Origin: Bacteroidota bacterium
GTDB taxonomy: Bacteria > Bacteroidota > Bacteroidia > CAILMK01 > JAAYUY01
Assembly: GCA_018698135.1 (NCBI GenBank)
Contig: JABINZ010000274.1
Coordinates: forward strand, 7,686-71,685
DNA length: 64,000 bases
Direction: 5' to 3'
Shown one piece after another: positions 13,829-58,593 of the stretch. The stretch's first letter is position 1, and each line of letters starts with the position of its first letter. The position numbers and the translations under genes are program-made. The notes beneath the pieces were generated by a model. That model saw only the letters and a program-made list of their open reading frames with translations. It was not told where the DNA came from and did not search any database.

Positions 13829-13908
13829 GATGGTTTATCTCCTATCCTCACCGTATCTGTACAATAAACGAAAAATCAAAAGCAGTCTTAAGCAAGATGC
13901 TGGCTCAA

Positions 13909-14685
13909 CTATTTCATTTGCTTCCACTTAAACATCAGTTCAGTGAGTTTTTGCTTGGTATGTTGCGGGAAATCATTTTTGATCATCCAACCATAATAGG
14001 CGGGATCTTTTTCGAAAATGTCAAAAACCTTTTTGGATTTATGTTTACCAAAATTGAATACAGCATCTCCTTCAGCGTTTAAAACAACTCGTCCTGCTAA
14101 ATCAACCATGTTTTCTAATTGTTTGCCCGTAAACTCATATAGACTTTCCATATCGTCCCCAATATCGTCATAACGCAATACCTGAGCTTGAAGAACCTCT
14201 TCTGTAGCAGCAATATCTGCTTCAGCCGAATGTTGATTAATAATTTCTTTATTGCAATAAAACTTAAAAGCTGCTGCTAAATCTCTCCTTTCTTTTCGAT
14301 GAAAAATATGCTGTACATCCACCACCTTTCTTCCATCCAAAGAAAAATCGACATTGGCACGAAGTAGTTCTTCAACAAACATGGGCAAATCAAATTTCAC
14401 TACATTATATCCAGACAAATCTGCATTTCCTATAAAATTAACAAGACTTTTGGCCACTTTTGCAAAAACAGGTTCATCCTTTAAATCTTCATTTGAAATT
14501 CCATGAATCTCTAAGCTTTCCTTAGAAATTGGTATTTCAGGATTAATCCGTTGTGTTAGGATTTCTCTTTTACCATCAGGCATGAGTTTCAAAATGGATA
14601 TTTCGATAATTCGGTCGGTACTAACGTTTAATCCCGTTGTTTCGAGATCGAATAATGCTAAAGGCTTTGTTAATTTAATTGACAT
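13909..14685 (-). CDS. DEDDh-family 3'-5' exonuclease (DnaQ-like)
   Basis: Exo motif I LALFDLETTGL, motif II (…HGISNEDL…), motif III …HSAEADIAAT…. Confidence 0.75.
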   Translation of the reverse strand: MSIKLTKPLALFDLETTGLNVSTDRIIEISILKLMPDGKREILTQRINPEIPISKESLEIHGISNEDLKDEPVFAKVAKSLVNFIGNADLSGYNVVKFDLPMFVEELLRANVDFSLDGRKVVDVQHIFHRKERRDLAAAFKFYCNKEIINQHSAEADIAATEEVLQAQVLRYDDIGDDMESLYEFTGKQLENMVDLAGRVVLNAEGDAVFNFGKHKSKKVFDIFEKDPAYYGWMIKNDFPQHTKQKLTELMFKWKQMK

Positions 14686-14727
14686 AGTTTAATGTTTGCA
14701 GCAAAGTTGAAAAATTTTGAAGAATTA

Positions 14728-15313
14728 TTAGGATTTATTTGATAATAGCAATTTTTCAATCACTATAGGAAAATATTCATATTCTAAGGCATGAACTTTC
14801 TGAGCTATTTCATCTACGGATTCTGTTTCTGGATCAATAGTGCAGGATTTTTGGAAAATAATTTGTCCTTCATCATAATAGGAATTCACATAATGAATGC
14901 TAATGCCTGTGATTTTGTCTCTGTTTTGCTTTACACTGGCATGAACTTTATCACCATACATCCCTTTTCCTCCATACTTAGGCAATAAAGCCGGATGAAT
15001 ATTGATAATTTTATGTGGATAAAGCTGAATAATAGTATCTGGAATTTTCCATAAAAAACCAGCCAGCACAATTAAATCTATTTTATCTGTTTGTAATTTG
15101 TCGATAATATCAGTGCGCTGTTGCAGGCTTGTTTTATCAAATACATGATAAGGTATATCCAATCTTTTGGCCCGTTCTATAACTCCTGCAAGAGGATTAT
15201 TCGTAAAAATACATTTAAGGGCAATCTGCTCATTTTTGGCAAAATAATTAGCAATATTCTCAGCATTAGAGCCACTACCAGAAGCAAATATGGCGATGTT
15301 TTTTACAGACAAG
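14728..15313 (-). CDS. purN: Phosphoribosylglycinamide formyltransferase
   Basis: IAIFASGSGSN, …NIHPALLPKYGGKGMYG…, …ITGISIHYV…EGQIIFQ… match PurN. The ORF-track start at 15384 would overlap the upstream gene by 62 nt. An in-frame TTG at 15313..15311 gives MSVKNIAIFASGSGSN…, a typical PurN N-terminus 10 nt after the upstream stop. Start is uncertain. Confidence 0.8.
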
Positions 15314-15322
15314 GGCTCGCTT

Positions 15323-16816
15323 TTAGAGTTCAAATTCGTCAATGAAAAGTTTTGTAAAGAGCTCGCTAATATTTCCATTCCCATCTAAATTGTGTAATTC
15401 AAGAGATGAAATAATGAAAGTTGTTTTGCCCAATGTATTAGCTCTTTTTGCCATAACTGTCGATTTTCCCGTCCAAATGGTGGAGCCCGATGAAGTTGAT
15501 TTCGTAATAACTGCATCATACAGTGGAGTTGATGAGAAATCTTCATAGAAAGGACGAGCACTGGCTATAAATTTATTTGGATCGGTCTTTAAATCAGGCC
15601 ATCCCGTATGCAACTTATTAACATCCGATCCTTTGGGTAAGCGAAAAGCGATAACACCGGGAGGCAAACCAACTAAGGAATCCATGGGTGAAAAATCGAG
15701 ATAACCAGCCTGTTCTGAAATAGATGAGGCAATTTCAACCGACATAAACATCTTCCCTCCTTTTGCAAAAAATTCGCTTGTAGTCCGTTGTGCCAGCGAC
15801 ATGGAAAAATCAATATCCTTCCCAAACCAAATAATGGTCTCAAAAAGATTAAAAATCATGGATTGGGTGATATTATCTGGTGCCAGTTCGGTATAATGTT
15901 CACTATTAATTTCCTGTAAACGTGTAACATCAAAATCAGTTATGCCAATGGATTGTAGATTATTTACATAAAAGTTCTCGCGTGTAACAATACTGGACGA
16001 ATACGCATTGACCAGCAACACGTCTGACTTTGGTTTCCGGACATATATTTTATAGGAATAGGTAAAAGCCGATTTTTCGCCAACAATATCTACAGCTCGT
16101 ATGATTAATTCATTGGTATCATTTAATAGCATTCCCTCCAAAGTATTGGTATGCAATGTCAGGTTATTACCCTGAAGCACTTCACAATCAGTAATTGCAT
16201 TGCTGCTTTTAGCTTTTAAAATCACTGAATTAAAAACAGCATCTATAACAACTGGATTTGAGGATGTATCATTTAAGAATAGTTCATAAAAAGCAATGTT
16301 CTCATCGCCATCAGGATCGCTTCCTTTCCAGGTATATTTTAATATGGGGAATGAATTATCAGGCTTACGTTTGGGATTTCCAACAGCATACTCAAATTTC
16401 ACACTGGGAGGTGAATTTTTAACAGGAAAAACAATATAGGCCGGTGATGGATCAACCATCCCTTCGTTATCAACTGATCGAACATAAAAAGCAAAATCAA
16501 AAGTATCCTGACCTTGTGGGATATTCACCAAAAAAACGGAATCCTGCCGTTGTGTAGCTTTCCACATAATTTTATCCAAGGAAAACTCAAAAGAGCTGAC
16601 ATATCCATCAGGATCGTCTCCCCACCAATTAATGGCTATTTGTGTGATAAACCTATTTTCACCAAAGCGCATGATTGTATCAACAGTGGTGTAGGTTTCT
16701 GGAGCTTTGTTCGGGATTAATTCTCCCTTGATATTATCTTCACAAGCAGAAAAACCAATAAGGATAATTCCTGCAAATAAAATCGAATGTATAGTGGATT
16801 TAAACATTAGTAACAA
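15323..16816 (-). CDS. Hypothetical lipoprotein (signal peptide + lipobox Cys)
   Basis: 497 aa. N-terminus MLLMFKSTIHSILFAGIILIGFSAC… fits a lipoprotein signal peptide. No recognisable catalytic motifs. Confidence 0.5.
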   Translation of the reverse strand: MLLMFKSTIHSILFAGIILIGFSACEDNIKGELIPNKAPETYTTVDTIMRFGENRFITQIAINWWGDDPDGYVSSFEFSLDKIMWKATQRQDSVFLVNIPQGQDTFDFAFYVRSVDNEGMVDPSPAYIVFPVKNSPPSVKFEYAVGNPKRKPDNSFPILKYTWKGSDPDGDENIAFYELFLNDTSSNPVVIDAVFNSVILKAKSSNAITDCEVLQGNNLTLHTNTLEGMLLNDTNELIIRAVDIVGEKSAFTYSYKIYVRKPKSDVLLVNAYSSSIVTRENFYVNNLQSIGITDFDVTRLQEINSEHYTELAPDNITQSMIFNLFETIIWFGKDIDFSMSLAQRTTSEFFAKGGKMFMSVEIASSISEQAGYLDFSPMDSLVGLPPGVIAFRLPKGSDVNKLHTGWPDLKTDPNKFIASARPFYEDFSSTPLYDAVITKSTSSGSTIWTGKSTVMAKRANTLGKTTFIISSLELHNLDGNGNISELFTKLFIDEFEL

Positions 16817-26899: not shown

Positions 26900-28537
26900 T
26901 TAAAAGAATCCAAATATCCCATTAGGGGTATATCCTAAAAACCTCAACCATGTTTCTCCTAATATCATAAAAAGAATCCATGTTATTCCCATCATAGTAA
27001 TACCATATTTGAATGTATCAGACCAACTATATTGATCAGTGCTATATAGTAATAAAGCTGGCTTACTGTTAAAAGGAAGAACGTAAACATGTTCAATAAG
27101 CAAAGCTACAGGAAAAGCAAGGCTCAATACCGGATAACCAAATTTTTGTGCAACACCAATTGCAATCGGCACAAAAATCAATGTACGCATTGTTTTCGAC
27201 TGGAAGATTAGAGCACTAAAGAGCATTGTAAATGTAAGTATTAAATATAAAACGCCAAATGGTGTACTATTATTAAAACCCAGACCATCAAAAACTGCAT
27301 TAACACTTATTGAAGGGAGGTCTGTTACCTTAAATCCAGCTCCTAGTGTATATGCTCCTGCTGAGAACAATAACAAATGCCAAGGAATATCAACTTCATT
27401 CCATTTTACAACACCAATTTTCGGTAATAATGATACAACTGCTCCAAGAAATGCTACAGCAGTTGGGCTAATTCCATGATATTTATCGGTTGTCCATAAT
27501 GCAAGCACAGCAACAAAAATTGCAACGGACCTAACTTCTTCAAAACTCACTTTCCCCATTTTTGAAAGCTCATCTTTCAGCTTCTCCATTCCTCCCTTGA
27601 TTTGAGGAACTCGTTCCTCCTTCTTTATTGGGAAAATAAACTTAGTTCCGACAAATAAACCAATAATCATAAGGGCTAAGGAAATTGGGAATGCAACTAT
27701 CATCCAATCTGTAAAAAAAATATCAGATCCAATAGCTCCACCAATTAGTGCAGCTGCTAAGAGATTGGCTCCAGATCCAGTAACAAAAGCTCCTGCACCC
27801 ATATTAATTTGCAACAAATTCTGTAGAACCAAGTTTCTGCCAAAATTATTTTTGTCCTTACCACCAGTAGCACCATATACTGCAGCAATAACCATAAAGA
27901 TCGGTAATAAAATAGCTGCCTTTGCAGTTGTTGCAGAAATAAAAGCAGAAAGAATTAAGTTGATCACAATAAAACTGACAAAAATTGAAGATGCATTTTT
28001 GCCAAACTTAATGATAAACCATAAGGCAAATCGTTTGGCAACACCCGTCTTTACCAGCATACTTGCCAATACAAACGATAAGATATTTAACCACATTACT
28101 TTATGTCCTAATTGATGATAGGCATCAACTTCTGAAAGCACATTGGTTAAAACTAATGCAATAATAAGTATCAAGGATGTTAAGTAATTTGGTATAGCTT
28201 CTGTTATCCATAAAATGATGGCAGCTAAAAAGATGGCCAGCATTGAAATATTTGTCGAGGTAAATGCTTCTGATCCAATGGCATCATATACGGTTCTTGC
28301 TTTATCACTTAATGTTGATGGATCAATATTATGCAAGAATGATAAATCTGCAAAATAGTTTAAAAAAACAAACACAATAATGGCTAGTGGAGCACCAGCA
28401 ATCAACAAAATCTTTTCAAACTTTGACCGCTCTCGCTGAGGCAACTTATTCAAGTGATAATTCCTCATGTCCAATGGATCAAATCCATTCCCATTTAATT
28501 GCTCATTATTATCTATCTGTCCTTTCTTGCTTTGCAT
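26900..28537 (-). CDS. SLC13/DASS-family (ion-transporter superfamily) anion:cation symporter
   Basis: 545 aa polytopic membrane protein with two-fold internal symmetry. ILWITEAIP and a second …LP(K/F)…GAG… repeat unit resemble DASS/SLC13 permeases. Confidence 0.55.
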   Translation of the reverse strand: MQSKKGQIDNNEQLNGNGFDPLDMRNYHLNKLPQRERSKFEKILLIAGAPLAIIVFVFLNYFADLSFLHNIDPSTLSDKARTVYDAIGSEAFTSTNISMLAIFLAAIILWITEAIPNYLTSLILIIALVLTNVLSEVDAYHQLGHKVMWLNILSFVLASMLVKTGVAKRFALWFIIKFGKNASSIFVSFIVINLILSAFISATTAKAAILLPIFMVIAAVYGATGGKDKNNFGRNLVLQNLLQINMGAGAFVTGSGANLLAAALIGGAIGSDIFFTDWMIVAFPISLALMIIGLFVGTKFIFPIKKEERVPQIKGGMEKLKDELSKMGKVSFEEVRSVAIFVAVLALWTTDKYHGISPTAVAFLGAVVSLLPKIGVVKWNEVDIPWHLLLFSAGAYTLGAGFKVTDLPSISVNAVFDGLGFNNSTPFGVLYLILTFTMLFSALIFQSKTMRTLIFVPIAIGVAQKFGYPVLSLAFPVALLIEHVYVLPFNSKPALLLYSTDQYSWSDTFKYGITMMGITWILFMILGETWLRFLGYTPNGIFGFF

Positions 28538-45340: not shown

Positions 45341-47689
45341 ATGTTCCTAAGCACCCGAAATATTAGCGTTATTTTTCTATTTTTGGCCTTATCCATTTCC
45401 GGATTTGGACAAAGTCCAAAGAAATATTTCAAAGAGGGTGAAAAATATCTGGAAGAAAGAAAATATATGCTTGCAGTAACCAAGTTTACTCAAGCACTTC
45501 GAATGGATCAGGAATACAAAGATGCCTACGTCTTCCGAGCAAAAGCATATTTTGAATTAGGTGAAATAGAAAAATCTGCTAACGACTATGCAAGTGCTGC
45601 CAGTTATGAGAAGAAGAATCCTGAATTTGCCTTCAATGCTGGAAAAATGTATTATAATTTAGGCAGCTATTTTAAAGCAGTCGATTACTTGAACCTTTGT
45701 ACCGAAATTGATAAAAAGCATTTAGACGGCTATGATTATAAAGTAAGGGCTTTAATGGCTCTTGAAAATTACGATGCAGCCTTATTTGAAGCTGAAAAAG
45801 CGATAAAAATAAAGAAAACAGCCATAAGCCATTACAATTTGGGAAATGTAGCATTTCATTTAAACGATTTAGAAACAGCCTACACCAATTTATCCAAGGC
45901 AGTGAAATTGGATAATAAAATGAAGGAAGCCCATTTTACTTTGGCCAAATTATTTTTCAAATTAGAAAAATCAACAGAAGCATTAACTGCCATTAATACA
46001 GCAGCAACATTGAGTCCTAAAAGTTTTGATGTTTATAAATTGAGAAGTGAAATTTATTATCACCGAAAAAATTATGTCAAAGCAATTAATGATTTAACCT
46101 ACATCCTAATAAATATTAATCCTGAAAATGCAGACATATATCTGTTGAGAGGTGATTATTATATGGAAAACAATAAATCATATAATGCAGTTAGCGACTA
46201 TTCTCAGGTACTCATACTGGCACCATTGCGTTTTGATGCAGTTTTCAAACGTGCCAAGGCCTACGAAATAATTGATAACAAAGAAAAAGCTGTCCAGGAT
46301 TTTGAGGATTATTTGAGTAGGATTGACCACAATAAAGAAGAGAACAGAGTTGATATTTATTATGCTAAAACGCATGTTTTTGAGCTAAATCGAGAACAAA
46401 ATAAACCTATAATCGATTTAACATGGCCCGTGACAAAAAGGGATTACCTTTTTGAAATACCCCTGAATATTGACAAAATATCCCTGAAAGGAATAGTAAG
46501 AGATCAAAGTGCGTTGAAATATTTTAAGATCAATAATAGCGAGTATCCCATCGATTCAATTACACTTTCTTTTACTTATTCATTAACAATAGCGAACTTA
46601 GAAAAGGTTGTTTTTGAAGCAGAGGATATTTATAATAATTATCAAAGTATTACTTATACAATCAAACGAACAGAAACAGATCCACCCGTTATACACTTGT
46701 ATAGTCCTTTTGCGTCTGATAATGGCGAAATCGTATTGCAATCAACAAATCCAATACTGTTCGTAGAGGGTAAAGTAACAGATCAAAGTGTTATCAAATC
46801 AATTATGATTGATAATACCTATGCCAGTTTCCTCAGCACAGAACAAAATCCAACTTTCTCTGCTTATTTAAATATCAGTGGGAAAAATGAAATTACCATT
46901 TCAGTCATCGATATTTACGATAATGAAACAAGTATTAATTATCATTTCAATAGGGAATTAGCCAAATCAGATGCTGAAAATCCCATGGGAAAAACTTGGG
47001 TTGTATTTATTGAAAACTCCGATTACAATCAATTACAAGACCTAACATCCCCTGCAAAAGATATCAACTTGGTAAAGGAATCACTGAAAGATTATAATAT
47101 TTCGAATTTCATTTACAAGCAAAACCTGACAAAATCTGAAATGCAAAGGTTTTTCAGCATTGAGTTAAGGGATTTGGTTATTGATAATAATGTAAACTCC
47201 ATTGTGCTTTGGTATGCCGGACATGGAAAATATACCAACGAAACAGGTTATTGGTTGCCTGTAAATGCAAGTTTTGCAGATGAATTCACCTATTTTCCAA
47301 TCAATAGTTTAAAAGCTGCCATACAGCCTTACTCTAAATATTTAAAACACATATTGGTTGTGACCGATGCCTGTGAAGCAGGTCCTTCATTTTATATGGC
47401 ATTACGAGCAAGTCCACAGCAGCGCGATTGCAGCGATTGGACTGATACTCGACATAAGTCTGCCCAGGTGCTTACATCTGCTGGAAACGAACCTGCTGTT
47501 GATAATTCAAAGTTCACACAAACATTTGCTAACGCTCTCTTGTATAATCCCGACTACTGTATTTCAATTGATGATATAGTGATTAAAGTAAATAAAGCCT
47601 ACGAAGAAGCAAATGGCCAAAACCCAAAGTTTGGTAAAATTGCCGGTCTTGAAGATGAAAATGGAACTTTCTTCTTTATAAAAAAATAG
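45341..47689 (+). CDS. Secreted TPR-repeat protein with C-terminal caspase-like (clan CD, peptidase C14-type) domain
   Basis: Signal peptide MFLSTRNISVIFLFLALSISGFG. About 8 TPR-like helical repeats (residues about 20-330). C-terminal domain …KTWVVFIENSDYNQLQDLTSPAKDINLV…LWYAGHGKY…LVVTDACEAGP… matches the caspase His (GHG) / Cys (DAC) dyad architecture. Confidence 0.7.
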   Translation: MFLSTRNISVIFLFLALSISGFGQSPKKYFKEGEKYLEERKYMLAVTKFTQALRMDQEYKDAYVFRAKAYFELGEIEKSANDYASAASYEKKNPEFAFNAGKMYYNLGSYFKAVDYLNLCTEIDKKHLDGYDYKVRALMALENYDAALFEAEKAIKIKKTAISHYNLGNVAFHLNDLETAYTNLSKAVKLDNKMKEAHFTLAKLFFKLEKSTEALTAINTAATLSPKSFDVYKLRSEIYYHRKNYVKAINDLTYILININPENADIYLLRGDYYMENNKSYNAVSDYSQVLILAPLRFDAVFKRAKAYEIIDNKEKAVQDFEDYLSRIDHNKEENRVDIYYAKTHVFELNREQNKPIIDLTWPVTKRDYLFEIPLNIDKISLKGIVRDQSALKYFKINNSEYPIDSITLSFTYSLTIANLEKVVFEAEDIYNNYQSITYTIKRTETDPPVIHLYSPFASDNGEIVLQSTNPILFVEGKVTDQSVIKSIMIDNTYASFLSTEQNPTFSAYLNISGKNEITISVIDIYDNETSINYHFNRELAKSDAENPMGKTWVVFIENSDYNQLQDLTSPAKDINLVKESLKDYNISNFIYKQNLTKSEMQRFFSIELRDLVIDNNVNSIVLWYAGHGKYTNETGYWLPVNASFADEFTYFPINSLKAAIQPYSKYLKHILVVTDACEAGPSFYMALRASPQQRDCSDWTDTRHKSAQVLTSAGNEPAVDNSKFTQTFANALLYNPDYCISIDDIVIKVNKAYEEANGQNPKFGKIAGLEDENGTFFFIKK

Positions 47690-48104: not shown

Positions 48105-51100
48105 ATGCGTATAAAAGGTGCCTTCTTGTTCTGTTTTCTCTTATTTAGTAGCCTGCTTGGTTTAGCACAATTGAATGGAAGTTATACGATTAAACCTTCT
48201 TTGTCAAACTTTTCAGGAAATCCTAATGGCATTTCTGGCAAAAATTACACCTCCTTAAATAATGCAGTATCTGCTTTAAAGAATTATGGAATAAGTGGAC
48301 AAGTTACTTTTAATATTGATTCAGGCAGTTATAATGAACAGATATCCATTCCTTCAATTACGGGTGCTTCTGCTACAAGTCGAATAGTTTTTCAATCGGC
48401 AAATGGAGATAGCAGTTCCGTACATATTAAGTTCAATAATTCAAATTCCAATACTAATTATGTTATTCAATTAAACGGTGGTGACTACTTAACTTTCCGT
48501 CAACTCACAGTTATTGCAAGCGGAAAATTTTTTGGTAGAGTTATAGAACTTACAAATAATGCTAATTACAATATCATCAGTAATTGTAAAATTAATGCAG
48601 AGAATGGAAATTCTTCCTATTCAGCCGGAATTTATGCCTATTCTAGTTCTATCGATTGTTACAATACAATTACAAACAACTTGATAGTTGGAGGATATTA
48701 TGGTTTGACATTTTATGGTTACCATGAAACGGGTAATAACGTAATTGGAAATACTATTAAAGATTTTTATTATGTCGGCATTAATTTGAGGTATCAGGAT
48801 TCTTTTCTTTTAGAGAACAATACGATTACCAGTTTAAATCAATCCTCACATATTATTGGGATTTACCTTTATAGTACATTAAACGAAGGAAAAGTATGTC
48901 AAAACAAAATCAATCTCAGTTCAACCTCATCTTGCACAGGAATCTATCATTCAGGTAATCAAAGTACTTTAATAGCCAATAATTTTATTAGTATTCAAGG
49001 TTATGGTTCAGCTACTTTATATGGATTAAATTTTACGTATTCTTCAAATTGCATAATTGCTAATAATTCAGTAAGCATACGATCAAATTCGACATATAGT
49101 AGTTATGCCATATATTTAAGAAATTCTACATATCTAGGAATCTATGTAAAAAATAACATATTTGCCAATTATGCCGGTGGATATAGTATGTATATCAGGG
49201 ATTATTCAAATTTTGCTGATTCATTGTTTTCTGATTATAACAACTTATACTCCAATGGCTCTAATCTGGTTTATTGGAATACTTCATTTACTAATCTTAC
49301 TCATTGGCAGAATAATAGTGGAAGAGATTTACACTCTGTATCACTTGATCCTCATTTTTTGTCTAACACTGATTTACATATTAATACTGTGGGCCTGAAT
49401 AATAAGGGGATTGCATTAGCAGCAGTTAACAAAGATATTGATGGGGAAATCAGATCCTCTACTCCTGATATTGGTGCTGATGAATTTTTTCCAGCACAAT
49501 ATGATGTAACGATTGTCGAACTAGTTAAACCAACTGCTCTTGCACCAGGATCAAATCCAATTGTTGTGAAAATTAAAAATTTCGGAGATTCTACACTGAA
49601 TAGTTTATCAATTAATTGGGAAGTGAATGATGTTTCTCAAACAACGGCTTCCTTTTCATCTTTGTCTCTTAATAAGTATGCTGAAACAACTGTTACTATT
49701 GGAAATTTTGCATTTTCTGATGGAAATTATTATACTCTAAAAATATGGACATCCTCCCCAAATGGACATGTTGATGACAATCCTTCTAATGATACTTTTT
49801 GTGTTCATGGCATAAGGACAGCATTATCAGGTGAATTCACTATTGGTGATAGTTTAGCCGATTATCCTGATTTTTCTTCTGCAATAAACGAATTAATTGA
49901 AAGGGGAGTTTGTGGTGCTGTTAAATACAGGGTTTTCGATGGAATATACAAGGAACAACTTAGCATTCCTGAAATTAAAGGAGCATCTTCTACTCATCCC
50001 ATAACTTTCGAATCATATAATAAAGACAGCAGCAAAGTCGAAATCCAATACTCAAGCCCTTATTCAAATGATTTTGTCATTGAGCTAAGAGGTGCTGATT
50101 ATATCCATTTTAAATTCCTGACTATTCGATCAACTTCATCACATCGCCCCAAAGTAATAGAACTTAGTCTGGAGGCAAACAATAATACCTTTTCGAACAA
50201 CAGACTCATCTGCAATTCAAGTTTGAATCCGTATTATTCTCATGTCATTTTCAGTAATTCACAAAATAATGATAGCAATTCATTCATCCATAATATAATT
50301 GATGGCGGTGAATATTCATTGTATTTAAGAGGTGAAAGTTCTAACAACTACAATCAAAACATTATTATCAAAGACAATTTAATTACCAATTTTACCTACC
50401 AAGCAGTCTCTATGCAATATCAGGAAAGTCCTATAATTTCAGGGAATACTATTGTTTCAAGTTCAATCAATTCTTACTCAACAGGCATATCACTAATCCA
50501 ATGTTCTGGTCCAGTATTTATTTGCAATAACAATATTAAACTAACAGACATAACCCTTGCTAATGGTATTAATTTGGAAAAATGTATTGGAACTGTAAAT
50601 TCCAGAGTTAAAATATACAACAACTTCATTTTATTATCTGGAAATGTCAATGCATCATCAAACGGTTTTTATATCTCCAGAGGAGAATACAATACAATTG
50701 CCAACAATACAGTTAAGATAATGTCAACTTCTGTAAGCTCCTCAAACGCTCTTTATTTGTATGGTGGATCAAACATAGAAATACTTAATAATAATCTCAC
50801 TCATTTTTCAGGAGGATATGCCATTAATTCCCCTTACCAGCCCTCAATATTGAGTTCAGACTACAACAATTTATATTCTACAGGAACATACTTGGGTAGA
50901 TGGAACAATCAGAATGTTTTAAGTTTAAGCTCATGGAAATCCAAAAGCTCCTTAGACTCACATTCAGTATCCACAGATCCATTGTTTTTGGATAATGATA
51001 ATTTGCATATTTATTCTCAAGTATTGGATGGAGCAGGATCTCCAATTTCATACATAAATAAAGATATTGATTACGAAACAAGAAATGTAAGCCAACCAGA

Positions 51101-54100
51101 TATTGGTGCTGATGAATACAGTTTCAAAGAATATGATGTTGCTTTGCTTAAACTGAACTCAGCAAGTACTGCTTGCGATAATAGCAAAACAGGTATCAGT
51201 ATTAAGATACGAAATGTAGGTTTAAAAGGTATTTCAAGCCTTAAAACATATTGGAGTATCAATGATTCAGTTCAGGCAATAAAAACAATATCCTGCTATC
51301 TCCCTCCCGCCACAACTCTTACACTAACTATTGATTCACATACTTTTTCTGGAAGGCAAGCCCATGAACTAAAAATATGGGTGGACACATTAAATATCAA
51401 TAAGCCTGACCAATATCATAGAAATGATACGCTGAAATATTCTTTCCGTCCTGCTATGAAAGGAACCTATACAATAGGTCATTCAGCCAGAGACTATAAT
51501 AGCTTTACAGAGGCTGTTGATGACCTCATCACTTCAAGCATATGCGGCTCGGTTGTATTCATCGTGGATACTGGCTTTTATGATGAGCAAATTAGCATTC
51601 CTCCTATTATCGGAACATCAGCCACAAATACAATTACGTTTACAACTACAGTAAAAGACAGTACAAAAACAATCATTCATTACAACTCTTTGTCCAGTTA
51701 CGATAATTATATCCTTCAACTAGTTGGTGCCGATTACATCAGGTTTGAGTATTTTAATTTTCAATGCAGTAATGTCGTGTCAGATATGAGATGCATTTAC
51801 ATTACAAATGGCTCTCATCATAACATTTTTCGCAACAATAAAATCGGCTTTCAAAATTCTAATACGCTAAATATAAGTGGCATTTATTCAACTTCACAAC
51901 TTAATAATTACAATAAAATAGTGAATAACTATGTTGAAAATTGCAGGAATGGGATCATTTTAAATGGTGCAGATAAAGGAAACTTGATAAAAGACAATGT
52001 GATTACTGGATTCTCAAGTTCAGGGATATACGTAAACAATCAAGATAGTATTATAGTAGATGCCAATATAATTAGTGGTCATGGTTATTATGGCATTAAT
52101 TTCAATTCCTGCATTAATGGTTCAAAGTTAATCAACAATAGAATTATTTTGTATTCTGGTTCATCCTCAATTCTTGGAATATATGCCAGATATAATAGTG
52201 GAACAGCTTCGGAGAGAATATTGATAGCGAATAATTTTATTAGTTCTTTCTCTGGCAATTCCATTTCAGGGATGTATGTATTAAACAACAACTATATCAA
52301 TATCTTTCACAATTCTATTAACCTCTTATCAAGTGGAGGAAATTCGAATTATGCTATTCGTTTTCGATCATCATCATCTGGGAAATATGGTAACATTAAC
52401 TTTAAAAATAATATTGTTTTAAATAAAGGAATAGGATATGCAATTATTGTTGAAGATGATACTGCATCCATGAGTCATCTGAATAATTCAGATTACAATA
52501 TCTTTTATACCAATGGGCCAAGCTTTGGCGTTTATGGTACAACAAGCATAAACGATATTAACCATTGGCAAAAAATTACATCAAAGGATAAGAACTCTTT
52601 TACGGCTTTACCTCTTTTTATAAACGATAGCGACCTGCATTTATTAAGTCCCAGAAAATACAGGATAAATAATCCACTACCTGCAGTTACCACAGATATC
52701 GATGGTGAAATTAGAAGCAAGGTCAAACCAATTGTTGGTGCCGATGACCTCCATGTATATGCGCTGGATGCCGCTGCGCTACAGCTTACAAATCCACTTT
52801 CAACAACTTGTGAAGGCCCTTCTGAATTCTATGCTAAAATAATTAATGAAGCATCTGAACCAATGGACAGTGTAGAAATCGAATGGTCGGTTAATGGCAA
52901 TATTCATCAACCCATTAAATATTTTGGTAGAATAAGAAGCTTTGAAGAGGTCACAGTATATTTAGGTATTGATTCATTAAACGCAACTTTAAAAAACGAA
53001 GCAATTATAAAAACGAAAAATCCAAATGGTTTTGCAGATCAAAATCCTGTGAACGACAGTATATATATTGATAATTTCAAGATATTTCAAGCTCCCATAA
53101 TCTCAAAAATATACCATGACACAATTTGCCGTAATAGCGATGCATTACTGAAAGTAAGTGGTAAAGCTGAAAATTATTTATGGTACGATAAAGCCAATAG
53201 TACGAATCCCATTTCAGAAGATTCCTTTTATGTATTGAAAAATCTGCAAAAATCCAAAATGTTATTTGTTGAAGGAGTGACGGGTGGACTTCCAGACAGT
53301 CTACAAACTTATCTCCTGAATCACAATCTGCAGATGGGTATGGGAAATATGTTTAATATGAAAGCGTTAAACGATGACCTTGTTATTGATAGTTTTGGGG
53401 TATTGATAAACGCTAAAAAGGGCATTCCAGTGCCCATTGCAGTATATTACAAATATGGAACATTTACCAATTATGAAAAAGACTCAAATGCATGGACATT
53501 AGTAGGACTGGATACCATGATTTCAAGAGGTCAAAATGAATATACTCCTGTATCATTCGGAAATATAAAAGTAAAAGAAGGAGAATATGTAGCCATTTAT
53601 ATAAGTTCAACGAATCCAGATTTTTTACTATACTCAACGGAAGGAGCTCTATCTTTTTCAAATTCTGACTTGAAGATATCTTGTGGAATTATGAGTTATT
53701 ACCCCTTTGATGCTTATTTTGAAAAACAGAAAACATGGAATGGAATTGTTTATTATTCCAAAGGCGTGTTATGCCGATCAGAAAGAGATTCCGTTTATGC
53801 CCATGTTAATAAAGTTCCTCATGTAAATTTAGGGATTGACACCAATTTTTGTCTCATTACTCCCCTTATTCTTGATGCAGGTGCAGGACCAGGTTTTAAG
53901 TATAATTGGAAATATGACTTGCAGTCAGACACCATTTCTACTGCACAACAATTAACCATCGACTCATCAGGCAGGTATTCTGTCCAAGTGACTGATAGTT
54001 GCGGTTTTACAGCATATGATGAGAAAGCTGTCATTATTAGAGAAAATCCTGTAGCTGAGTTTACAATTAATGATAGTTCTCAATGCATGAATGAACACAA

Positions 54101-55040
54101 ATTTGTGTTTTACAATGCATCAATAGCTCCAACTGGAGGCAAAATATGGTCCTATTGGGATTTTGGAGATGGCGATCATTCACTCTTCAATCAGCCTGAG
54201 CATTTGTACAAAACTACTGGCATCTATCCTGTCAAACTTGTTATTTTTGCAGATAATGGCTGTAGTGATACTACGCATTATGATAGTTTAAAACTATTCT
54301 CTTCCCCACAATCTGGTTTTCTGGTTAATAAGGATACTCAGTGTTTGAATGAGAATAATTTTAGTTTTTTCAATGCAAGTTCACTGAGTCAGGCAACACT
54401 TCAGTATTATTGGTTTTTTGATGATGGTGGCGTTTCAAGGCAAAAAGATGTCAATTACAAGTATAGTCTGGCTGGTAAATACAACGTCATGTTAGTAGCA
54501 ATATCAGAAAATGATTGTAACGACACAACAAGCCATAGTATATTAGTTAAGCCTTCTCCTTACGTATTTTTAGGCAATGACACCAGCTTAAAAACCAATC
54601 AATCAATTCTGCTGAGTGCTGGCCAAGGATTTGACAGCTATCAATGGTCGGATGGAGGAAATAAAGATACAGTATTGATCCAATCGCCCTATGCACAGAC
54701 AAAAACAGTCTGGGTAATAGTTCAAAAAGATGGCTGCCCAAACTACGACTCAATTAATATTCATTTCGACTCACTAATTGGTATGTATGAATCCTTTTCA
54801 AATACTGAATTGCATATTTTCCCAAATCCAGTAACTGATTATTTGAATATTATTTCTAAAACTAAAATTCAGCATCCGCTTGAACTAAGTATCTATTCAT
54901 CTTCTGGAAAACTCATCAGTAATCATGAAATGTGCTACGAAACAAATAAAATAGATACCAGACAGTTATGCAGGGGTACCTACTTCCTTAGCATAGTTAA
55001 AGATGGTAAGTTGAGCGTATTCAAATTTGTGAAACAGTAA
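48105..55040 (+). CDS. Giant T9SS-secreted protein (2311 aa): 3 x [parallel beta-helix + CARDB-like] modules, central domain, PKD domains, Por_Secre_tail; paralog of 1697..6967
   Basis: Signal peptide. LNGSYTIKPS…, LSGEFTIGDSLADYPDF…, MKGTYTIGHSARDY… module starts each carry N-x-I-x-N beta-helix repeats. Each is followed by a …DIDGEIRS…DIGADE(F/Y)… segment. PKD WDFGDGDHSLFNQPEHLY. C-terminus LHIFPNPVTDYLNII…GTYFLSIVKDGKLSVFKFVKQ. Confidence 0.8.
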   Translation: MRIKGAFLFCFLLFSSLLGLAQLNGSYTIKPSLSNFSGNPNGISGKNYTSLNNAVSALKNYGISGQVTFNIDSGSYNEQISIPSITGASATSRIVFQSANGDSSSVHIKFNNSNSNTNYVIQLNGGDYLTFRQLTVIASGKFFGRVIELTNNANYNIISNCKINAENGNSSYSAGIYAYSSSIDCYNTITNNLIVGGYYGLTFYGYHETGNNVIGNTIKDFYYVGINLRYQDSFLLENNTITSLNQSSHIIGIYLYSTLNEGKVCQNKINLSSTSSCTGIYHSGNQSTLIANNFISIQGYGSATLYGLNFTYSSNCIIANNSVSIRSNSTYSSYAIYLRNSTYLGIYVKNNIFANYAGGYSMYIRDYSNFADSLFSDYNNLYSNGSNLVYWNTSFTNLTHWQNNSGRDLHSVSLDPHFLSNTDLHINTVGLNNKGIALAAVNKDIDGEIRSSTPDIGADEFFPAQYDVTIVELVKPTALAPGSNPIVVKIKNFGDSTLNSLSINWEVNDVSQTTASFSSLSLNKYAETTVTIGNFAFSDGNYYTLKIWTSSPNGHVDDNPSNDTFCVHGIRTALSGEFTIGDSLADYPDFSSAINELIERGVCGAVKYRVFDGIYKEQLSIPEIKGASSTHPITFESYNKDSSKVEIQYSSPYSNDFVIELRGADYIHFKFLTIRSTSSHRPKVIELSLEANNNTFSNNRLICNSSLNPYYSHVIFSNSQNNDSNSFIHNIIDGGEYSLYLRGESSNNYNQNIIIKDNLITNFTYQAVSMQYQESPIISGNTIVSSSINSYSTGISLIQCSGPVFICNNNIKLTDITLANGINLEKCIGTVNSRVKIYNNFILLSGNVNASSNGFYISRGEYNTIANNTVKIMSTSVSSSNALYLYGGSNIEILNNNLTHFSGGYAINSPYQPSILSSDYNNLYSTGTYLGRWNNQNVLSLSSWKSKSSLDSHSVSTDPLFLDNDNLHIYSQVLDGAGSPISYINKDIDYETRNVSQPDIGADEYSFKEYDVALLKLNSASTACDNSKTGISIKIRNVGLKGISSLKTYWSINDSVQAIKTISCYLPPATTLTLTIDSHTFSGRQAHELKIWVDTLNINKPDQYHRNDTLKYSFRPAMKGTYTIGHSARDYNSFTEAVDDLITSSICGSVVFIVDTGFYDEQISIPPIIGTSATNTITFTTTVKDSTKTIIHYNSLSSYDNYILQLVGADYIRFEYFNFQCSNVVSDMRCIYITNGSHHNIFRNNKIGFQNSNTLNISGIYSTSQLNNYNKIVNNYVENCRNGIILNGADKGNLIKDNVITGFSSSGIYVNNQDSIIVDANIISGHGYYGINFNSCINGSKLINNRIILYSGSSSILGIYARYNSGTASERILIANNFISSFSGNSISGMYVLNNNYINIFHNSINLLSSGGNSNYAIRFRSSSSGKYGNINFKNNIVLNKGIGYAIIVEDDTASMSHLNNSDYNIFYTNGPSFGVYGTTSINDINHWQKITSKDKNSFTALPLFINDSDLHLLSPRKYRINNPLPAVTTDIDGEIRSKVKPIVGADDLHVYALDAAALQLTNPLSTTCEGPSEFYAKIINEASEPMDSVEIEWSVNGNIHQPIKYFGRIRSFEEVTVYLGIDSLNATLKNEAIIKTKNPNGFADQNPVNDSIYIDNFKIFQAPIISKIYHDTICRNSDALLKVSGKAENYLWYDKANSTNPISEDSFYVLKNLQKSKMLFVEGVTGGLPDSLQTYLLNHNLQMGMGNMFNMKALNDDLVIDSFGVLINAKKGIPVPIAVYYKYGTFTNYEKDSNAWTLVGLDTMISRGQNEYTPVSFGNIKVKEGEYVAIYISSTNPDFLLYSTEGALSFSNSDLKISCGIMSYYPFDAYFEKQKTWNGIVYYSKGVLCRSERDSVYAHVNKVPHVNLGIDTNFCLITPLILDAGAGPGFKYNWKYDLQSDTISTAQQLTIDSSGRYSVQVTDSCGFTAYDEKAVIIRENPVAEFTINDSSQCMNEHKFVFYNASIAPTGGKIWSYWDFGDGDHSLFNQPEHLYKTTGIYPVKLVIFADNGCSDTTHYDSLKLFSSPQSGFLVNKDTQCLNENNFSFFNASSLSQATLQYYWFFDDGGVSRQKDVNYKYSLAGKYNVMLVAISENDCNDTTSHSILVKPSPYVFLGNDTSLKTNQSILLSAGQGFDSYQWSDGGNKDTVLIQSPYAQTKTVWVIVQKDGCPNYDSINIHFDSLIGMYESFSNTELHIFPNPVTDYLNIISKTKIQHPLELSIYSSSGKLISNHEMCYETNKIDTRQLCRGTYFLSIVKDGKLSVFKFVKQ

Positions 55041-55299: not shown

Positions 55300-58200
55300 T
55301 TGTCCAAACTGTTTTCTAAAATTGATTTAGAAAAGGTCCTGAATGTAAAAAAGAGCGAATTTGGCTTTGTCAAATTACTGTTCTTTCATAATTTCTTTCA
55401 GGGTGTGGGTTTGGCACTTTTCTTTACAGCAGCCAATGCTATATTTCTGGCTCAGGCTTCAGTCAAATCGCTTCCTTTAGTTTACATACTTTCTGCAGTC
55501 CTCTTATTATTCATTGGCAGTCTCTATTCATATATTGAGAAACGCTATTCGGTTAAACGATTATTGCAATTTTCATTAGGATTATTGGTTGTCAGCATAT
55601 TAGGTATTCGCATTGGATTGCAATTCTCAGAAAGTTTATGGATTGCATTTGCCATGATGATGTGGTATAGGGTAACTTCTTTGCTAAACTATCTTGAATT
55701 TTGGGGTTTATCAGCCATGTTATTAGATGTAAGACAAAGCAAGCGTCTTTTTGGCTTAGTAAGTTCAGGAGAAGTATCAGCCAAGCTTTTGGGTTATTTT
55801 TCGGTACCAGCTTTAGTTCCGCTTATTGGGAATAAAAATCTAATCCTTATTGCAGCGATGGCCTTTATGGTTTGTTTACTTTTCCTGAACCAAATCATAA
55901 AAAAATATGGTAAACATAAAATTGATCAATCCACAGTAAAAAAAGTAGTAGATAATTCGGAAAGCCTTTTAAAGAAATACCTTAAAAGTGACTTTATAAT
56001 TTTACTTTCCATCCTATCTTTTGTTGCCATCGTTTCATTCACATTTATTGATTTTGCCTTTTTAAGTAATGTGCAGAACAAATACACTACAGGTGAAGAA
56101 ATAGCTGTTTTCTTTGGGTTATTCTTTGGTATTAACAAAGGAGTAACCATTTTAATCAAAATGTTTTTAACAGGACGAATAATCGACAAACTAGGCATTA
56201 AACACAGCCTGTTATTTTTACCTATTGTATTCATTATCATAACAGCCGGTATTATTTTTTACCGTTTATTCTCTGCTGAAGAAGCTTTGCTCTTTAGTTT
56301 ATTTGCTACACTTGCCTTTTCTCTTGAGTTATTTAGATACTCCATCTTTGAACCTGTTTTCTTTTCATTGATCCAACCCTTAAGTAAAAAGTTACGCTTA
56401 TTCGGACATACTATTGTGAATGGATTCTTAAATCCTATAGCTCTGGCCGTAGCAGGTATTACCTTATTCTTGCTTATTTATTTTCAGGATCAAATTAATT
56501 TGGGTTTGGTGAGTTATCTTTTGATATTCACTTTAGTTGTCTGGATGGTTATTGTGTTTATTACCAATAGGCAATACATTATTGTGCTTCAAAATGCGGT
56601 GAAAAAACGATTCTTTGAAGGCTCAGAAATGCCCATTCAAGGCAAGCTAATTAAGAATATTCTATTAAAGAAACTGAATAGCCCCTATCCTGAAGAAACA
56701 ATTTATTCATCCGAGCTCTTATTTAAGCTAGATGAGAAAGATGAAGAAACCATTATACCAGAACTGCTCAAACATCCCTCTGATGAGGTGAAAAAATATG
56801 CTTTTAGTAAAATTGAATCAGAAAAAATAAAAGGTCTGGAGTTATTAATATACTCCTTCATCGTTTCTGGACAAAGTAGTCAGGTCAGGGAAGCAGCCAT
56901 TCGCGCTTACTGTATGGTTGAGCAAAATGAACTTAGCAATATTTTCCCTTTTCTTGAGGATAAAGATCCACACATTCGGACAGGTGCCATTACTGGTTTA
57001 CTCAAAAGTGGGGATTTGGAGCCGGTGGTATTAGCAGGTCAACAATTACTTTTACTCATACAATCAACTAATTCGCAGGAAAATATTATTGCTGCACATA
57101 TCATACGCGATTTAGCCATAAAAAACTTCTTTCAACCCATTCTAGACTTTTTTGAAAACAAGGATCCCGCTCTTGTTCGAGCTGCCATTGAAGCAAGTGC
57201 AACATCGCTTAACCCAAGGTTTATTCCTTATTTGATTGATTTTCTAAAACATACAGTTTATAGCGAGTTGGCCATGCAGGCATTATCAAGTTTTGGTGAT
57301 GTGAGCACAAGTTATATTCAAACTTTTGCTGACAAATTACCTGCTAAGGAATATCATATATCACAAATTGTAAGATTGTGTAGAGTTTTGGGCAATATTG
57401 CCAGTCCACACGCACAGCAGATATTATTGAAATTTATGAACTTTAGTGTTTGTAAAATCCAGAATGAAGCATTGATTAGTTTGCGGAAATCGAATTATAA
57501 AGTGTCTGGTGACGATTCTCTGATTCGAAACAAATTTGATGATCAGTTCAATCAGGCTAGTTGGCTATATCAGGCAATTTTCATCCTCAATCAACAAAAA
57601 TCTTTAAATAAGAGACTTGTTACTGCATTGGATATTGAATTGCTAATCGTTAAGGAGAACCTCTTTAATTTACTTTCTTTCCTATACGATACGCGAACTG
57701 TGTATAAAGCCAGAGAAGGCTTGCTGGCAGATTTTTCAGAACGTAAAGCCAATGCACTCGAGATAATTGATAATTTGATTAGCAAAAAAATGGCAATCAA
57801 GTTGTCTGTTATATTCGAAGATATGCCTTTGGATGAAAGAGTGAAAAAACTGGACGTGTTTAAAGTTAAAGTAGCATCCGAATTAGTATCTATTCCCGAA
57901 ACCATATTGCGGGAAAAAGACAATAAATTCAATCGATGGACACAAGTTTCAGCCATCATATCAATACTTGATTTCGTTAAATTTGAACTTACTCCACTCC
58001 TCTTACCTTATCTGGATAACCAGAACAAATTACTTAGTGAAGCAGCCCAAAACACACTTTTCCGTATCAACCAAAACGCAACATTCAACAGTAATGTTTT
58101 GGAAGGATATATCGAAAACAATAAATTTGAATCACTTATGGAAAACAGTTCGCATGGAAGCCTTCTTGATATCGAAAAGGTGATTATTTTAAAAAGCACC

Positions 58201-58593
58201 AGTTTGTTTACTGAAACCCCGGAAAACATTTTAGTGGATATTGCCAACATTATTAAGGAAGAACGTATTGAAGAAGGGCAAAGCATATTCACTAAAGGCG
58301 ACATGGGAACCTGTATGTATATTATTAACGAAGGTGAAGTAAACATCCATGATGGCGACCTAAGTCTTGCTGTACTTAAAAATCGTGATTTCTTTGGGGA
58401 ATTAGCACTACTTGATCCAGAACCCCGCTCCGCTTCTGCCAAGGCATCAAAAGACACATTATTACTGCGCCTTGATCAGGAAGCATTTTATGAATTGATG
58501 TCGGAACGCATGGAAGTCGCTAAAGGAATTCTTAAAATCCTTTGTCGCAGAATTAGAAATCAAAATGACGTAATTGCTGGATTGAAAAAATAA
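55300..58593 (+). CDS. Multidomain membrane protein: N-terminal TLC/MFS-like transporter domain, central HEAT/ARM-like repeats, C-terminal cyclic-nucleotide-binding (CAP-family) domain
   Basis: Residues about 1-430 have about 11-12 TM helices. Residues 470-700 have repeated …L..D.(D/S)..VR..A… helical pairs (HEAT-like). C-terminus FTKGDMGTCMYIINEGEVNI…FFGELALLDPEPRSASAKA… is a canonical cNMP-binding beta-roll (FGE…RSA). Start is the TTG at 55300 per the ORF track (uncertain). Confidence 0.65.
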   Translation: MSKLFSKIDLEKVLNVKKSEFGFVKLLFFHNFFQGVGLALFFTAANAIFLAQASVKSLPLVYILSAVLLLFIGSLYSYIEKRYSVKRLLQFSLGLLVVSILGIRIGLQFSESLWIAFAMMMWYRVTSLLNYLEFWGLSAMLLDVRQSKRLFGLVSSGEVSAKLLGYFSVPALVPLIGNKNLILIAAMAFMVCLLFLNQIIKKYGKHKIDQSTVKKVVDNSESLLKKYLKSDFIILLSILSFVAIVSFTFIDFAFLSNVQNKYTTGEEIAVFFGLFFGINKGVTILIKMFLTGRIIDKLGIKHSLLFLPIVFIIITAGIIFYRLFSAEEALLFSLFATLAFSLELFRYSIFEPVFFSLIQPLSKKLRLFGHTIVNGFLNPIALAVAGITLFLLIYFQDQINLGLVSYLLIFTLVVWMVIVFITNRQYIIVLQNAVKKRFFEGSEMPIQGKLIKNILLKKLNSPYPEETIYSSELLFKLDEKDEETIIPELLKHPSDEVKKYAFSKIESEKIKGLELLIYSFIVSGQSSQVREAAIRAYCMVEQNELSNIFPFLEDKDPHIRTGAITGLLKSGDLEPVVLAGQQLLLLIQSTNSQENIIAAHIIRDLAIKNFFQPILDFFENKDPALVRAAIEASATSLNPRFIPYLIDFLKHTVYSELAMQALSSFGDVSTSYIQTFADKLPAKEYHISQIVRLCRVLGNIASPHAQQILLKFMNFSVCKIQNEALISLRKSNYKVSGDDSLIRNKFDDQFNQASWLYQAIFILNQQKSLNKRLVTALDIELLIVKENLFNLLSFLYDTRTVYKAREGLLADFSERKANALEIIDNLISKKMAIKLSVIFEDMPLDERVKKLDVFKVKVASELVSIPETILREKDNKFNRWTQVSAIISILDFVKFELTPLLLPYLDNQNKLLSEAAQNTLFRINQNATFNSNVLEGYIENNKFESLMENSSHGSLLDIEKVIILKSTSLFTETPENILVDIANIIKEERIEEGQSIFTKGDMGTCMYIINEGEVNIHDGDLSLAVLKNRDFFGELALLDPEPRSASAKASKDTLLLRLDQEAFYELMSERMEVAKGILKILCRRIRNQNDVIAGLKK

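Follow-up and report, generated by a model that had tools for sequence, protein, structure and literature searches.

A putative cyclic-nucleotide-regulated carrier of the NTT-HEAT-cNBD clade in a Bacteroidota bacterium

The fusion gene

The 64,000-nucleotide stretch of contig JABINZ010000274.1 analyzed here (assembly GCA_018698135.1, forward strand, positions 7,686 to 71,685; hereafter the window) carries a gene for a 1097-residue membrane protein in which a transporter-like domain, HEAT-like repeats, and a cyclic-nucleotide-binding (CNB) domain are joined in one polypeptide (Table 1). The window has a G+C content of ~33%, and many of its genes encode C-terminal sorting domains of the type IX secretion system (T9SS), which mark the source organism as a member of the Bacteroidota. 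An earlier reading of the sequence (the original prediction) had proposed a fusion of a transporter, HEAT repeats, and a domain binding cyclic nucleoside monophosphates (cNMPs) in this open reading frame (ORF); its coordinates and all three domains hold. The frame runs unbroken from a TTG start through 1097 codons to a stop, and the start agrees with the N-termini of homologs: the consensus of 19 close relatives begins at the same position. A separately called protein (P0001) is 100% identical and also 1097 residues long, and a word-indexed search returned 87 homologs of the fusion protein.

The gene is under purifying selection, strong in every domain. Against an 80%-identical ortholog, the proportion of nonsynonymous differences (pN) was 0.048 in the CNB domain, 0.12 in the carrier, and 0.15-0.18 in the HEAT region, with the proportion of synonymous differences (pS) saturated at 0.79-0.91 in all domains. 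A chance ORF, a pseudogene, or a mis-assembled fusion of separate genes might be suspected from the rarity of TTG starts and from a single-sequence transporter score under Pfam cutoffs, but this reading has a negligible probability and is refuted by the uninterrupted 1097-codon frame, the independent calling of the identical P0001, the recurrence of the three-domain order and length in hundreds of species and thousands of clusters, the strong selection in every domain, and a confident structure model. A scan for sigma-70 promoters and terminators around the gene gave counts at chance level, Bacteroidota promoters lying outside the coverage of the scan.

Table 1. Features of the fusion gene and of other genes in the window
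Feature	Position	Strand	Evidence
Fusion gene, NTT-HEAT-cNBD	55300..58593	+	ORF list and translation; 87 homologs; 20,418 cluster representatives at E ≤ 1e-30; pN << pS
NTT/TLC-like 12-helix membrane domain, residues 18-439	55351..56616	+	Family profile, Foldseek, model helices, charge bias
Signature D143-V-R145-Q-S-K148-R149, cytoplasmic loop 4-5	55726..55746	+	Conservation in 55 sequences, alignment to CpNTT1/AtNTT1
HEAT-like alpha-solenoid, residues 449-950	56644..58149	+	Pfam HEAT_2, HEAT_EZ, model helices
CNB domain, residues 957-1096: N-terminal helices, beta-roll, C-terminal helix	58168..58587	+	Pfam PF00027, PDB matches, fold matches
Phosphate-binding cassette F1032-GELALLDPEP-R1043-SASAKA	58393..58446	+	Sequence reading, alignment to PKG/PKA cassettes
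TPR-caspase (Peptidase_C14), 782 aa, signal-like N-terminus	45341..47689	+	Pfam
T9SS-secreted beta-helix/PKD/Ig protein, 2311 aa, between TPR-caspase and fusion gene	48105..55040	+	Pfam
ORF with signal peptide, 403 aa	58762-59973	+	
DUF772 transposase-domain ORF, 151 aa	44789-45244	+	
CYTH-domain ORF, 154 aa	28600-29067	-	
DASS (Na_sulph_symp) transporter	26900-28537	-	
SpoU methylase, RNase_T, formyltransferase, ~500-aa protein	13031-16816		
Glutathione peroxidase domain with T9SS C-terminal sorting domain	7965-8783	-	
T9SS cargo gene, 412 aa	338-1576	+	
T9SS cargo gene, 1756 aa	1697-6967	+	
T9SS cargo gene, 2146 aa	17278-23718	+	

The membrane domain

At the level of its sequence family, the N-terminal domain is an NTT/TLC-type transporter fold, a branch of the MFS fold. 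We built a profile of the N-terminal 465 residues from the query and 23 diverse relatives (24 sequences) and ran it against all PDB sequences; it matched NTT1 of C. pneumoniae (CpNTT1, "ADP,ATP carrier protein 1"; 9j3n) at E 2.4e-30 over profile positions 11-442 and Arabidopsis plastid NTT1 (AtNTT1; 9j3j) at E 1.2e-27, the best MFS protein outside the NTTs being OxlT at E 6.4e-5. Taken singly, 11 of the 24 profile sequences match PF03219 (TLC; best E 1.8e-16), and 19 match MFS_1 (PF07690) at E ≤ 0.01. The query alone gave no PF03219 match in Pfam at E ≤ 1, and reached 28.3-30.6 bits for MFS_1 over residues 27-342 against a gathering score of 33.4 bits. Of the Pfam/InterPro check that the original prediction had suggested, the cNMP_binding and HEAT_2 parts thus came out above their cutoffs and the TLC and MFS_1 parts did not; on this check alone the transporter would have gone undetected.

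An AlphaFold2 model of the full protein, computed from a 55-sequence alignment (mean pLDDT 85.6, pTM 0.70), has twelve long helices in the membrane domain. Its top three Foldseek matches in the PDB are AtNTT1 (9j3l, 9j3m) and CpNTT1 (9j3n), with TM-scores of 0.66-0.72 over 463-487 columns, followed by the CNB domains of CRP, SthK, SLC9C1, HCN, and PKG. Together with the profile matches, this bears out the description of the N-terminus as TLC/MFS-like at the family level. The membrane domain is predicted to have an N-in/C-in topology, which places 31 loop lysines and arginines inside and 3 outside; the HEAT and CNB parts are accordingly cytoplasmic.

The HEAT solenoid and the cyclic-nucleotide-binding domain

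The HEAT-like repeats are real: Pfam HEAT_2 (PF13646) matches residues 585-663 (E 4.6e-11, 43.3 bits against a cutoff of 27.7), HEAT_EZ follows at E 0.015, and the model folds the region into ~14 antiparallel helix pairs. This is the least conserved part of the protein, with a mean identity to relatives of 25-27%, compared with 35% for the carrier and 51%, the highest, for the CNB domain.

The CNB domain, judged by its alignments, is canonical, with intact ligand-contact residues, and is the best conserved part of the protein. Pfam cNMP_binding (PF00027) matches residues 988-1069 (E 5.1e-20, 71.7 bits against a cutoff of 27.5), and PDB searches with the last 150 residues led to CNB domains of PKG, PKA-R, Epac, CRP, and SthK, down to E 7.5e-32. 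Foldseek matches superpose at a root-mean-square deviation of 1.8-2.7 Å, and the model places the strands of the beta-roll at residues 986-1059, before a long C-terminal helix. The cassette (Table 1) aligns with its counterparts in PKG and PKA-R and contains both the Gly-Glu that contacts the ribose and the Arg-[Ser/Thr]-Ala that contacts the phosphate. Among 44 CNB-bearing relatives, G1033 is kept in 43, E1034 in 39, R1043 in 38, S1044 in 35, and A1045 in 36. The intact domain with Arg-Ser-Ala that the original prediction described is therefore present and widely retained. That prediction would have fallen had the N-terminal region scored as no transporter family and the cassette lacked its Arg and Glu; the region does score as a transporter family, and both residues are in place.

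Relatives of the fusion

The fusion had been described before, as the NTT-HEAT-cNBD architecture of Major, Embley & Williams (2017, Genome Biol Evol 9:480; PMC5381601). According to that study, whose NTT dataset has 43 sequences from Bacteroidetes, the NTT-HEAT fusions make up a single clade, widespread in bacteria that are mostly free-living; the cNBD is encoded in some members by a gene directly downstream and is fused in others, oomycetes acquired the three-domain form, and the fusion members were uncharacterized (PMC5381601). The literature also places clade members in Chlamydia trachomatis, cyanobacteria, and oomycetes. The original prediction had called such fusions poorly characterized experimentally, and the literature found on NTT-HEAT, the 2017 description and two papers citing it, indeed gives no function for the fusion.

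A profile search of 1.84 billion cluster representatives (50%-identity clusters) returned 20,418 proteins at E ≤ 1e-30; the best 150 are nearly all ~1000-1300 residues long, with one of 902. Full-length homologs with TLC and HEAT matches, and with Npt1/Npt2 or ATP/ADP translocase names, matched at E 1e-37 to 1e-240. Scanning GTDB with one genome per species and a query alignment of the 19 closer sequences, we found relatives in at least 566 species of several phyla; the closest among the species representatives listed is 52% identical over a partial match. The best 80 of these at least 566 species relatives, whose loci were covered by ORF calling and clustering, include free-living Bacteroidota (Hymenobacter, Spirosoma, Dyadobacter, Pontibacter, Chitinophagaceae, Saprospiraceae) and members of the Chloroflexota, Acidobacteriota, Gemmatimonadota, Desulfobacterota, Latescibacterota, Nitrospinota, and further phyla. 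NTT-HEAT proteins that lack a CNB domain are frequent among the relatives.

Some members (P0090, P0093, P0095, and others) are 1200-1300 residues long and match the family profile in two stretches, probably reflecting a duplicated CNB domain as reported for oomycetes. A further carrier fused to a CNB domain was seen in P0087, a DASS anion transporter with the domain at its C-terminus.

Cyclase and HD neighbors of relatives

Within 8 kb of the fusion gene, a class III nucleotidyl cyclase domain is encoded at 30 of the 80 loci, in four phyla, and a conserved HD-domain protein of ~195 residues is found near it at 24; one or both lie within 8 kb at 43 loci. Most are close neighbors: 22 of the 24 HD genes and 17 of the 31 cyclase genes are within 220 bp. 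The cyclases have at least five architectures, among them a REC-cyclase of 348 residues in Cytophagales, a Reg_prop/Y_Y_Y-cyclase of ~1010 residues, TPR-cyclases of 704 and 1466 residues, and further forms in Acidobacteriota, Chloroflexia, and Desulfobacteraceae, and this variety speaks for repeated association, not inherited synteny alone. Other neighbors are two-component proteins (histidine kinases as well as the REC-cyclase).

The REC-cyclase finds its best matches in the adenylate cyclases CyaB of P. aeruginosa and OaPAC (E ~1e-28), and it carries the lysine of D-K-F-x-G-D and the threonine of D-Y-T-x-I-G-D. The Lys/Thr pair of class IIIb adenylate cyclases specifies ATP. The neighboring cyclases thus look adenylate-specific, which suggests, though only suggests, cyclic AMP (cAMP) as the ligand of the CNB domain. 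The cyclase and HD neighborhood likewise points to cAMP as the signal, and it occurs in culturable genera (Hymenobacter, Dyadobacter, Spirosoma).

The HD family has invariant Y24-H25, H29, H61-D62, H72-E73, D120, and D122, and our searches found no characterized homolog. A role as a cyclic-nucleotide phosphodiesterase (PDE) is not supported: Pfam PDEase_I scored 21.1 bits against a cutoff of 24.8 and matched the N-terminal motif only, the single NCBIfam match scored 17.7 bits against a 400-bit cutoff, and a 24-sequence profile led to generic HD hydrolases (2pq7, 4.6e-5), with class I PDEs at E 0.2-0.6. On these matches the neighbor is best described as a generic HD hydrolase.

Such neighborhoods raise the idea that the protein carries the cyclic nucleotide itself, as a cAMP-gated cAMP exporter or importer that, with the cyclase and HD protein of relatives, sets the cAMP level. 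It would fit the membership in a family of nucleotide carriers, the loss of the lysines for the polyphosphate tail (described below), as suits a singly charged nucleotide, and the recurrence of the trio of cyclase, carrier-CNB, and HD genes in many Bacteroidota. We nevertheless find it quite improbable, as it is purely inferential, the HD neighbor has no significant similarity to known cyclic-nucleotide phosphodiesterases, the window locus has neither cyclase nor HD gene, and there are family members without a CNB domain. Just as improbable, in our view, is its broader form, in which a cyclase, an HD hydrolase, and the fusion, a carrier with its own cAMP sensor, would make up a self-contained cAMP module of wide occurrence, the fusion moving cAMP or a similar low-phosphate nucleotide through the inner membrane under CNB feedback. 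Were it true, this would be a dedicated ligand-gated bacterial cyclic-nucleotide transporter, and the whole NTT-HEAT clade, with its members in Chlamydia trachomatis, cyanobacteria, and oomycetes, would gain its first function.

Carrier residues and cargo

Four charged residues of AtNTT1 (AATP1), K155, E245, E385, and K527, are reported to be important for transport, K527 being tied to triphosphate transport (PMC4256464, citing Trentmann et al.). We mapped them by profile alignment, the chain numbering of 9j3j being offset by 84 from the precursor; the mapping is valid because with this offset all four positions land on the expected K, E, E, and K. Only E385 is kept in the clade, as D251 (acidic in 49 of the 55 aligned sequences). 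K155 has no counterpart in the query, where an insertion lies beside L58-P59-L-V-Y62, and the 55 sequences have no conserved basic residue there; E245 corresponds to R124, an arginine in 27/55 and otherwise mostly hydrophobic; and K527 corresponds to L382, a position hydrophobic throughout. In helix 1 (TM1), the NTT motif L-R-D-T-K-D aligns with the uncharged F-T-A-A-N-A.

Other motifs are common to the query and the NTTs: F134-W135-G136 at the end of helix 4, K148-R149 (the NTT "AK(R/K)FY"), G299, and P360...R366 in loop 10-11, which aligns with the NTT "IPLD..K". By their alignment these are structural or gating motifs. The loop 4-5 signature is kept nearly throughout (R145 in 51, K148 in 50, and R149 in 54 of the 55 sequences), and both its D-x-R-Q-S-K-R and the Q-P-L-x4-R of loop 10-11 are conserved. 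The clade also has a near-invariant set specific to the family (D143, R145, Q146, K287, P308, Q359, H370, W415, Y426) and a buried polar set of its own (R124, D251, K287, H370). Conserved charged residues within the membrane and conserved gate-loop motifs are what one expects of a working carrier, not of an anchor.

These features bear on the cargo. Given the loss of the substrate residues and of RDTKD, together with a distinct polar set, canonical exchange of ATP and ADP is probably not what the protein carries out; its cargo is more likely to be a nucleotide with fewer phosphates or some other small, charged metabolite. The substitutions argue against canonical ATP/ADP exchange and not against nucleotide transport in general. 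Because the residues that canonical NTTs use for ATP/ADP are replaced across the clade, its "ATP/ADP translocase" annotations are probably wrong.

A canonical antiporter that takes up ATP from outside against ADP, an uptake that cAMP would adjust to the energy state, is accordingly rather unlikely. Homology and fold are those of the NTTs, relatives are named "ATP/ADP translocase" or "AAA family ATP:ADP antiporter" in databases, ATP is the substrate of the neighboring cyclases, and the idea that cAMP adjusts ATP uptake was put forward, as speculation, by Major et al. (2017; PMC5381601). Yet three of the four AtNTT1 residues are gone, T-A-A-N-A stands in place of the TM1 RDTKD, and the hosts (Bacteroidota, Chloroflexota, Acidobacteriota, and others) live freely in soil and water, have an outer membrane, and have no obvious external source of ATP.

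The same replacements could mean that the protein no longer transports at all but is a cAMP effector scaffold or "transceptor," in which the NTT-like domain anchors or senses and the HEAT repeats recruit partners in response to a cyclic nucleotide. HEAT repeats are classic protein-interaction surfaces (PMC5381601), two-component proteins adjoin the gene in relatives, and the CNB domain is better conserved than the carrier. We regard this as unlikely, though it deserves mention: R145, K148, R149, D251, K287, G299, P308, Q359-P360, and R366 are near-invariant in more than 50 diverse members; such buried polar residues and gate loops are hard to explain in a passive anchor; the pN of the carrier is that of a domain under clear purifying selection; and the abundance of NTT-HEAT proteins without a CNB domain implies a core function independent of the sensor.

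A proposed cyclic-nucleotide-regulated transporter

We lean, with a little more confidence than doubt, toward reading the gene as encoding an inner-membrane NTT-fold secondary transporter of the NTT-HEAT-cNBD clade that is regulated by a cyclic nucleotide, likely cAMP. The CNB domain would bind an intracellularly synthesized cyclic nucleotide, most probably cAMP. The ligand would set its C-helix in motion, and the rigid HEAT arm would transmit this movement to the cytoplasmic side of the carrier, where D-x-R-Q-S-K-R in loop 4-5 and Q-P-L-x4-R in loop 10-11 are the likely receiving elements and where it would switch transport on or off. We infer cNMP-sensing transport, as the original prediction had suggested, and the cyclase neighbors of relatives strengthen it.

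Several points weigh against a regulated transporter of this kind or against cAMP as its ligand. Neither NCBIfam nor Pfam gave a transporter family above threshold for the single sequence, and in the literature on NTT-HEAT no function is reported for any clade member. Three of the four AtNTT1 residues are lost, which does not exclude nucleotide transport. The Arg-Ser-Ala cassette is compatible with binders of cAMP and of cyclic GMP alike, and the best PDB sequence matches of the CNB domain are domains of PKG. A tblastn search of the 64-kb window found no class III cyclase catalytic domain, no HD homolog, and no remnant of either, and a CYTH-domain ORF in the window (Table 1) had no NCBIfam match and so received no cyclase call.

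Seen within its family, the window copy is nothing categorically new but an ordinary, divergent member. The NTT-HEAT(-cNBD) clade is among the larger membrane-protein families without an assigned function, and the modest new leads are the replacement of the canonical substrate residues, the CNB domain as the most constrained part, and the cyclase and HD neighborhood.

The locus and its history

Upstream of the fusion gene, a 259-bp spacer separates it from the gene for the 2311-residue T9SS beta-helix/PKD protein, which is preceded by the TPR-caspase gene; downstream lie a signal-peptide ORF without a family and then a TetR-OEP-HlyD efflux set. The TPR-caspase is the kept upstream partner in relatives 48%-100% identical (L081 7555-9903, L082 7445-9799, L084 411-2762), and the window copy is orthologous to that of the P0013 contig (L084), with 42% identity over the full length. 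At the 80%- and 59%-identical loci (P0002, P0005), the TPR-caspase directly adjoins the fusion gene upstream, and there is no cyclase or HD gene. At the 48%-identical P0013 locus (L084 1-12076) the order is CNB-gated ion channel, TPR-caspase, Y_Y_Y cyclase, NTT-HEAT-CNB, HD, and TPR-cyclase, the CNB-gated ion channel lying two genes from the fusion gene; at the 37%-identical P0018 locus it is TPR-cyclase, NTT-HEAT-CNB, and HD. The 2311-residue T9SS gene is missing from its position at the P0002, P0005, and P0013 loci, and more distant relatives have a cyclase there. Relatives thus hold a compact cyclic-nucleotide gene island (L084 1-12076; also L085 1498-9908), and from these comparisons the window copy is a remnant of such an island, its lineage having lost the cyclase and HD genes from the locus. 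As the CNB domain is still strongly constrained, the sensor presumably answers a cyclase encoded elsewhere in the genome.

Within the window, the CYTH-domain ORF, 26 kb off and beside a DASS transporter gene, is the sole candidate for a conceivable cAMP source; the CYTH superfamily comprises class IV adenylate cyclases and triphosphatases.

The DUF772 ORF occupies the same syntenic spot in relatives 59-80% identical (L081 7006-7464, L082 4388-4855) and looks like a fixed or domesticated fragment, not a recent insertion. The SpoU methylase, RNase_T, formyltransferase, and ~500-residue protein genes recur at L082 1-4361; this block adjoins DUF772 and the TPR-caspase in the P0005 contig and is ~28 kb away in the window, a displacement that marks window positions 17278-44584 as a lineage-specific insertion or rearrangement. 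To judge by its signal peptide (MKYILILLFLVSGNCFAQ) and its aromatic C-terminal residue, the 403-residue ORF downstream of the fusion gene resembles an outer-membrane protein; neither Pfam nor NCBIfam matches it, and relatives do not keep it beside the fusion gene. Elsewhere, the glutathione peroxidase domain with a T9SS sorting domain suggests a secreted or surface-attached peroxidase, and the three T9SS cargo genes of Table 1 encode PKD, Ig, DUF7948, and SBBP domains, the window being unusually rich in giant secreted adhesin-like proteins.

Comparison with known systems

Compared with the NTT-HEAT-cNBD fusions, the query has the same order of an NTT-like carrier, HEAT repeats (PF13646/PF02985), and a C-terminal PF00027 domain in one polypeptide, and differs in nothing essential: it is a divergent Bacteroidota member under the Pfam TLC threshold. 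With canonical AtNTT1 and CpNTT1 (PDB 9j3j/9j3l/9j3m and 9j3n/9j3o) it has in common the 12-helix fold, full-length profile homology, the FWG at the end of helix 4, the K-R of loop 4-5, the P...K/R of loop 10-11, and the acid at the E385 position, at a sequence identity of 14-16%. In contrast, its clade is without K155, K527, and RDTKD and carries an arginine or a hydrophobic residue where the acidic E245 would stand; canonical NTTs have neither of the HEAT and CNB extensions that the fusion carries, and they belong to intracellular bacteria or plastids, whereas the query clade is found in free-living hosts.

The prokaryotic cyclic-nucleotide-gated channels SthK and MloK1 and the CRP-family regulators share with the query a homologous CNB domain and its phosphate-binding cassette. 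Their output is an ion channel or a DNA-binding domain, and that of the query is a carrier; the CNB domain of SthK and MloK1 is joined through a short C-linker, and that of the query through a HEAT arm of ~500 residues. The nearest working analogy, and the precedent for a CNB-regulated secondary transporter, is the sperm Na+/H+ exchanger SLC9C1 (PDB 8pd8, 8xq8), which couples a carrier to a C-terminal cytoplasmic CNB domain with the same regulatory logic. Its carrier fold is NhaA-type, unrelated to the NTT/MFS fold of the query; a voltage-sensor domain is present in the exchanger, and a HEAT solenoid is lacking. Over the whole chain the TM-score is only 0.09-0.12, so that the match is to the CNB domain alone.

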